Of a DNA stretch of 5,076 nt, positions 4,132 to 4,189 are shown piece by piece (within the stretch, counting starts at the first letter, position 1; every line of letters starts with the position of its first letter). The notes below the pieces were generated by a model. It was given only the letters and a program-made list of their open reading frames with translations. It did no database searches and was not told the DNA's origin. Made by a program: the position numbers and the translations under genes. Source of the stretch: a virus (Duplodnaviria > Heunggongvirae > Uroviricota > Caudoviricetes); IMG/VR virus record IMGVR_UViG_2663762849_000013. One strand, written 5' to 3'.

Positions 4132-4174
4132 AAAAAGGGCGGCAGAGCAGTCACGGAGTAAAACTGATACCGCC
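4132..4174 (-). terminator. Rho-independent terminator hairpin forming the 3' end of DicF
   Basis: On the minus-strand RNA, GGCGG...CUGCUCUGCCGCC forms a GC-rich stem and is followed by UUUUU (plus-strand AAAAA at 4132..4136). Confidence 0.55.
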
Positions 4175-4189
4175 AAACGTCACCAGAAA
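4137..4189 (-). ncRNA. dicF: DicF small regulatory RNA (Hfq-dependent; targets ftsZ and other mRNAs)
   Basis: The reverse complement of 4137..4189 is TTTCTGGTGACGTTTGGCGGTATCAGTTTTACTCCGTGACTGCTCTGCCGCCC, which matches the 53-nt DicF sequence of E. coli as I remember it. It is followed directly by TTTTT and lies between the ydfC-like and dicB genes. Confidence 0.85.

Follow-up and report, generated by a model that had tools for sequence, protein, structure and literature searches.

An intact dicF gene in an apparently recently disabled lambdoid prophage

The window analysed here, a stretch of 5,076 nucleotides taken as a whole, carries on its minus strand, from position 4189 to position 4137, a bona fide, sequence-perfect copy of dicF, which is an ordinary and already known small RNA gene. 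Very probably, this dicF sits in a prophage that was disabled only recently, has stayed intact through lack of time and because it is a small target, and is itself poorly transcribed or silent. The copy in the window is of little import in itself, since DicF has been characterised since 1989-90, is widespread, and is here identical to the reference. The locus carries a lesson of method, namely that small genes left whole beside big genes that are broken are the null expectation in a recently damaged prophage. It also illustrates that an sRNA that is cut from a long operon transcript can be sequence-perfect yet functionally orphaned.

Organisation of the locus

The window is a complete draft contig of 5,076 bp (GCA_000936105.1, CCBY01000343.1), with a repeat at both ends, IS600 at one and IS1 at the other. 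It holds one minus-strand lambdoid operon of the early-left (PL) type, with the order ydfB'-ydfC-341-nt leader-dicF-dicB-ydfD-like-exonuclease-xis-int' (Table 1), and dicF lies between ydfC and dicB within it.

Table 1 Features of the 5,076-nt window, in order of position
Feature	Position	Strand	Evidence
IS600 end (IS3 family), truncating the integrase gene; contig edge	1-105	-	99-100% match to annotated IS600 copies
int', N-terminal fragment of the integrase, 212-aa ORF	93-731	-	Pfam Arm-DNA-bind_1, 78.9 bits
xis (excisionase), intact, 82 aa	709-957	-	Pfam Exc; excisionase annotation in L003 and Tritos
Exonuclease gene, W185*	1022-3493	-	Ungapped against the intact 823-aa L003 gene; Pfam Rv2179c-like, 202.9 bits
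ydfD-like DUF1482 ORF, 62 aa, full length	3589-3777	-	Pfam DUF1482, 1-57 of 57
dicB, 62 aa, full length	3774-3962	-	Pfam DicB, 1-62 of 62, 125.5 bits
3' arm of the 21-bp RNA duplex, 3 nt upstream of the dicB Shine-Dalgarno	3978-3998	-	MFE fold; conservation
5' arm of the 21-bp RNA duplex	4109-4129	-	MFE fold; conservation
U5 tail of the DicF terminator	4132-4136	-	Direct sequence reading
dicF, 53-nt sRNA	4137-4189	-	RF00039, 76.7 bits; 53/53 to K-12; fold
dicF, interrupted terminator hairpin	4138-4174	-	MFE fold
dicF, single-stranded 5' segment	4175-4189	-	MFE fold
Non-coding ydfC-dicF spacer, the DicF precursor leader, 341 nt	4190-4530	-	Same 340-nt gap in K-12
ydfC, 72 aa, intact	4531-4749	-	2 residues differ from K-12 YdfC; ydfC annotation in L003
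ydfB', last 20 codons and stop, cut by IS1	4779-4841	-	Translation against K-12 YdfB; intact in L062
IS1 left end, inverted repeat GGTGATGCTGCC...; contig edge	4842-5076	+	Pfam InsA domains; junction sequence

The complete integrase gene has 1,131 nt in L003, a related locus that is 95% identical to the window. The native sequence of int' covers 106-731, and its last codons come from IS600. The exonuclease gene is a full-length homologue of the K-12 pseudogene ydfE, and a nonsense codon at 2939-2941 (TGG to TAG, W185*) splits what is otherwise a colinear 823-aa gene in the ungapped alignment to L003. The start of the ydfD-like ORF overlaps the stop codon of dicB by 4 nt (ATGA), and the Shine-Dalgarno sequence of dicB, GAGGA, is found at 3974-3970. 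At the other end, the InsA matches and the junction sequence place the start of IS1 at 4842 inside ydfB, which is broken after about codon 22, with insA starting at 4897. IS1 sits between the promoter side of the operon and dicF. The contig ends inside this element and does not include the promoter, ydfA or the repressor.

The gene order and the gap of ~340 nt between ydfC and dicF are common to the Qin prophage of K-12, phage Tritos and the ompW-site prophage of E. coli 120899. The window has the same 53 nt as the DicF of Qin (b1574), together with its terminator, its position between ydfC and dicB and its ~340-nt leader. The two differ in several respects: the exonuclease gene of Qin (ydfE) is cut by IS2, whereas that of the window is full length apart from W185*; the window has other alleles of ydfD and of the 3' part of dicB; and IS1 in ydfB, upstream of dicF, is present in the window only. 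Alignment between the window and K-12 is confined to 3858-4841 and 2727-3550, at 94-96% identity. We considered whether the window might be Qin itself and rejected this, as the alleles are different and the closest relatives are PPompW phages and prophages at the ompW site; the attachment site of the window itself was lost to IS600.

At least 76 viral or prophage contigs encode the DicB of the window with 100% identity, yet this allele is only ~63% identical to K-12 DicB, with most of the differences in the C-terminal half. The ydfD-like protein has likewise diverged strongly from K-12 YdfD. We assume that this common allele is the functional equivalent of K-12 DicB in MinC binding and in its effect on ManYZ.

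Functional lambdoid phages (Tritos, PPompW, Stx2a-converting phages, vB_Eco-813R8 and others) are 97-98% identical to the window across ydfC-dicF-dicB and have its gene order through exonuclease-xis-int, but their genomes are intact, in contrast to the two IS insertions and the nonsense codon of the window. Phage Tritos has an annotated dicF, the product of which differs from the window DicF at nucleotide 53.

The non-coding DNA on either side of dicF is 97.1% (4190-4530) and 98.3% (3963-4136) identical to L003, and most neighbouring coding genes have lower values, in the range 88.9-97.3%. Such high conservation would fit a constrained precursor RNA, although the z-scores of its folding do not reach significance.

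We also searched the 341-nt spacer for a hidden second Rfam family, and nothing rose above noise there. The dicF-dicB intergenic region gave instead a match to STnc100 (RF02076) at 3930-4139 of the minus strand, which spans the full model length but is below threshold (34.7 bits against a gathering score of 47, E = 1e-5). It covers the intergenic hairpin and the start of dicB, and scores of 29-38 bits were obtained in all related loci checked.

Identity and fold of DicF

The earlier note, which gave no strand for the gene, had read the 53 nt at 4137-4189 as DicF and proposed a search with the Rfam covariance model. In the cmscan of the whole window, DicF (RF00039) is the only family that reaches its gathering level, at 4188 to 4137 of the minus strand, with a score of 76.7 bits against a gathering score of 48 (E = 2.9e-16) and with model positions 1-52 of 52 covered. 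Alignment with the Qin locus shows that all 53 nucleotides, from 4189 to 4137, are identical to K-12 dicF (b1574, L001 4383-4435). The assignment is thus borne out, with coordinates that exactly match the K-12 annotation, and the gene belongs to the minus strand. Given this identity, the regions that pair with ftsZ, xylR and pykA, which the note had singled out for a conservation check, are intact by definition.

The terminator that had been attributed to DicF was also found. It consists of the interrupted hairpin of the family, with 7 + 5 bp in the fold and 7 + 4 in the Rfam consensus (arms 4174-4162 and 4152-4138), followed by UUUUU at 4136-4132, with no mismatch to K-12. The minimum free energy structure (-15.9 kcal/mol) is the Rfam consensus structure. 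The z-score of the fold against shuffles is only -1.82, which makes thermodynamics alone weak evidence, and for this reason the DicF call is carried by the covariance-model score and the sequence identity. None of the three alternative accounts of the locus that are weighed below affects this call.

Recent damage to the prophage

The age of the damage can be judged from an undamaged copy of the locus, L062 (IMGVR_UViG_2563366825_000022). Positions 3122-7859 of L062 align with 104-4841 of the window at 99.96% identity, with 2 mismatches in 4,738 nt and no gaps. L062 has neither the IS1 junction nor the IS600 junction, and reads TGG instead of TAG in the exonuclease gene. The nonsense codon, through the change at 2940, is the sole point change private to the window; the second difference (xis, position 758) belongs to L062 alone, the window agreeing there with L003. 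Since their common ancestor, the window prophage has gained one point change and two IS insertions, and these three lesions, one of them a nonsense mutation, appear to have disabled it very recently. The contrast that the earlier note had drawn is accurate as a description: the neighbours are damaged by IS elements and a point lesion (IS1 in ydfB, IS600 in int, W185* in the exonuclease gene), whereas dicF (53/53 to K-12) is untouched and the dicB and ydfD-like ORFs are full length.

The IS600-int junction was found in six draft assemblies, and the five others (L005-L009) are short contigs with similarly numbered GCA_0009xxxxx accessions. The junction common to all of them indicates a clonal IS-rich lineage, possibly of Shigella or EIEC, and the load of IS600 and IS1 likewise suggests a Shigella- or EIEC-like lineage. 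The IS1-ydfB junction has no exact match in GTDB representative genomes. Matches in O111:H8 (H1/H2) that seemed to include IS1 were discarded, as IS1 lies there at an unrelated site several kb away and represents a different insertion.

The insertion of IS1 might itself have been selected, if polar silencing of a toxic operon, at a point shortly past its promoter, prevented filamentation by dicF and dicB after loss of the repressor; the module would then be intact because it is switched off, and not because it is used. Derepression of dicBF leads to filamentation and toxicity, with spontaneous switching in subpopulations (PMC10448788), and IS1 lies upstream of every toxic gene in the operon. 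Moreover, the three lesions affect int, the exonuclease and the PL operon, and a prophage deprived of these functions becomes immobile or silent. However, the insertion stands as one event in a genome rich in IS elements, where insertions of IS1 and IS600 are expected by chance, and there is no recurrence, the IS1 junction being present in no other fetched locus. We therefore regard selection for the insertion as unlikely.

Division inhibitors encoded in PL operons also include lambda Kil and Rac KilR, which are under repressor control, inhibit the FtsZ ring transiently and are toxic when derepressed. These are proteins, whereas DicF, an antisense-type sRNA, is set free by RNA processing, and the likeness is a functional analogy for which no homology is claimed.

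Selective retention by the host

The earlier note had gone beyond description and proposed that the host selectively retains dicF, dicB and ydfD, as a module for division and defence, in a prophage that is otherwise decaying. Protection by DicB against ManYZ-using phages is the postulated reason for its retention (PMC6832061), and the locus is reported to be widely retained despite its toxicity (PMC5069750). The low dN/dS of dicB and the prevalence of dicF among E. coli genomes (see below) also speak in its favour. For the prophage in the window, we nevertheless find this proposal quite unlikely, on the grounds of its divergence from L062, dN/dS, prevalence and the position of IS1.

The two substitutions that separate the window from L062 leave no time for differential decay. 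At this divergence, the 427 nt of dicF, dicB and ydfD should have received ~0.18 substitutions. If three lesions fall at random, the probability that all of them spare these 427 nt is 0.75, and for dicF by itself it is 0.97. Because there are only two point changes relative to L062 in 4,738 nt, the untouched state of the small genes is the chance expectation (P ~0.75-0.83). At the larger distances of the 95%-identical L003 and of K-12, zero changes in the 53 nt of dicF have probabilities of 0.07 and 0.14, respectively.

The comparison of dN/dS with the 95%-identical L003 does not separate the supposedly retained genes from the decaying ones. The values are 0.11 for int', 0.06 for the N-terminal part of the exonuclease and 0.38 for its C-terminal part among the broken genes, and 0.12 for dicB, 0.37 for the ydfD-like gene and 1.06 for ydfC (5 differences) among the unbroken ones, so that the low value of dicB is equalled in genes that are broken. 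The divergence is therefore older than the damage and accrued in functional phages, under purifying selection.

Prevalence was determined with probes of equal length (76 nt) against 5,426 complete E. coli genomes. The canonical dicF probe matches 3,975 genomes, about three quarters of the total, at 6,700 places and with up to 7 copies per genome. But the adjacent spacer (4,029 genomes, 7,715 places) and the ribosome-binding site and start of dicB (4,281 genomes, 8,097 places) are at least as widespread, and the ydfC probe matches 3,051 genomes at 4,206 places. A conserved block of ~0.7 kb carries dicF along, and the non-coding neighbours of dicF are no less widely distributed. A strict per-feature census of intact and disrupted genes in 82 DicB-anchored loci did not serve as a test of retention, because mosaicism, divergent alleles and contig ends confounded it; the near-isogenic comparison with L062 and these equal-length probes took its place.

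Further points weigh against retention by the host. The module is cut off by IS1 from the position of its promoter. The same element is present in functional Tritos, Stx2a-converting and PPompW phages, so that its conservation may operate at the level of the phage. A short form of DicF that lacks the ftsZ-pairing loop is found in 442 genomes. Finally, dicF has been described as a variable sRNA, with up to eight losses inferred in E. coli and Shigella, several Shigella references included (PMC3318445). In the window, the intactness of dicF would reflect lack of time and small target size, from which selection by the host is not demonstrable. This concerns the window only and not dicF elsewhere, where retention for benefit is already a published postulate (PMC6832061).

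Processing and expression

In K-12, the sole source of DicF is the polycistronic transcript initiated at dicBp, which lies upstream of ydfA. This transcript is processed by RNase III to a 190-nt species and by RNase E to the 5' end of the 53-nt DicF, and primer extension and Northern blots gave no evidence of an internal promoter (PMC10448788). A 72-nt species with a 3' end generated by RNase III has also been observed (PMC5069750), and the 3' end of DicF is provided either by the intrinsic terminator or by RNase III. The remark in the earlier note that DicF needs no translation is therefore true in itself, but the RNA still depends on a long precursor transcript and on processing by RNases III and E.

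The local determinants of this pathway appear to be intact in the window. They comprise the sRNA with its terminator, the leader, and the 21-bp duplex that precedes dicB. From the processing in K-12 (PMC10448788), the 5' end of the 190-nt RNase III species is expected near 4326, and the differences between the two precursors are either pair-compatible or in unpaired positions. The perfect duplex of 21 bp (4129-4109 with 3998-3978) begins 3 nt after the DicF U-tail, ends 3 nt before the Shine-Dalgarno sequence of dicB, and contains position DicF+72 (4118), the reported 3' end produced by RNase III (PMC5069750). It is kept in 42 of 42 distinct sequences, with only one-sided changes between G-C and G-U. 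In the covariation test of the precursor, which involved closely related sequences, there were no double compensatory changes in the duplex and a few scattered covarying pairs elsewhere, so that covariation lends the structure no strong support. The fold of the 286-nt precursor, with a z-score of -0.81, is not better than shuffles, and it is the Rfam model and conservation, not thermodynamic significance, on which we base the structures. The duplex could couple RNase III processing to the translation of dicB.

The upstream region is different. In L062 it contains an S24-type CI-like repressor, a promoter-like site (TTGACC-17-TAAACT), a ydfA-like gene and an intact ydfB. The window does not have the uninterrupted unit from dicBp through dicF on which DicF production depends (PMC10448788), as it is broken by IS1 in ydfB at 4842. 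A crude consensus scan of the operon strand revealed no sigma-70-like site in 3500-5076, the IS1 end included. Insertions of IS1 are classically strongly polar. As IS1 separates dicF from the position of the promoter, and no other promoter was seen, the window copy is probably poorly expressed or silent through a polar effect of IS1. The dicF-dicB module is whole in sequence, but its expression probably is not.

A more far-reaching proposal is that, in this IS-rich lineage, IS1 uncoupled dicF-dicB from the repressor, with low read-through or IS-derived expression making of it a host-controlled division and anti-phage device. We hold this to be very doubtful; if true, it would mark the beginning, in a concrete and datable form, of the domestication of a prophage sRNA. 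That the module was rewired, with an IS1-derived or cryptic promoter driving dicF-dicB independently of the phage repressor, is highly improbable: there are reports of functional promoters that arose through IS1 insertion, and the local processing determinants are all in place, but, in addition to the negative promoter scan, the TTGGCA of the IS1 end has no plausible -10 hexamer at 16-18 nt (by eye), and constitutive DicF and DicB are toxic.

Targets and pairing

The 3' region of DicF pairs with ftsZ and pykA, and the 5' region with xylR (PMC5069750). DicF represses the translation of ftsZ by base pairing and has xylR, pykA and manX as other targets, while DicB directs MinC to the septum and blocks ManYZ-dependent phages (PMC5069750, PMC6832061, PMC10448788). 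Because the 53-nt sequence, the terminator, the position and the ~340-nt leader match those of K-12, the same targets and biogenesis are expected for the window DicF (PMC5069750, PMC10448788). It would be an Hfq-dependent prophage sRNA that pairs through its hairpin-loop/3' region with the translation-initiation region of ftsZ, and through its 5' region with xylR. The duplex calculated with RNAduplex for K-12 ftsZ, and not for the strain's own gene, spans positions -29 to +26, including the Shine-Dalgarno sequence, with an energy of -38.5 kcal/mol, which is equalled by 36 of 300 shuffles and beats only the other 264.

Variants of DicF in related loci

We surveyed the dicF position in 82 loci that were fetched via DicB, in most of which DicB is 100% identical to that of the window. 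The canonical form is present in ~63 of the 82, with 0-2 mismatches. In 11 loci there is a short form, UUUCUGGUGA-UUCGGCGGAAACGGAUAUCCGCCC-U5, in which the 5' segment is kept and the two-part hairpin is replaced by one of 6 bp. It is represented by the DicF-like element UUUCUGGUGAUUCGGCGGAAACGGAUAUCCGCCCUUUUU (L024 ~3770-3815), at the dicF position upstream of an identical dicB, and is also found in L023, L029, L036, L048, L050, L052, L090 (E. albertii), L012, L087 and L060. The 442 complete E. coli genomes, out of 5,426, in which it occurs (at least 80% coverage) have it unannotated. The Rfam DicF model does not detect the short form even at E <= 1, and no pairing with ftsZ was obtained for it in silico.

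The opposite exchange was also observed. In L051 (3649-3700), L053 (3766-3817), L057 and L086 (2891-2942) the 5' 12 nt are replaced by CCAUGUGUAGUC on a canonical hairpin, and this variant passes the Rfam gathering score, with 58-62 bits; it is expected to have lost the xylR-type 5' seed and to have kept the pairing with ftsZ. A second copy from E. albertii (L091 3777-3826, with a DicB that is 66% identical) keeps the 5' seed and has a different loop, with a score of 43.5 bits, below gathering.

DicF thus appears to be a modular family, in which the 5' seed and the hairpin-loop seed are exchanged independently; a non-exhaustive literature search found no description of these variants. They could matter for annotation, given that Rfam misses the short form, and could help to explain how phages tune which host mRNAs are hit. 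In L086, in addition, isrK (64.7 bits) and a C4 antisense RNA (77.9 bits) are found between dicF and dicB, at 3190-3378, and this insert looks like an immunity or antirepressor RNA module of the P1/P7 type placed in an operon of the dicBF type.
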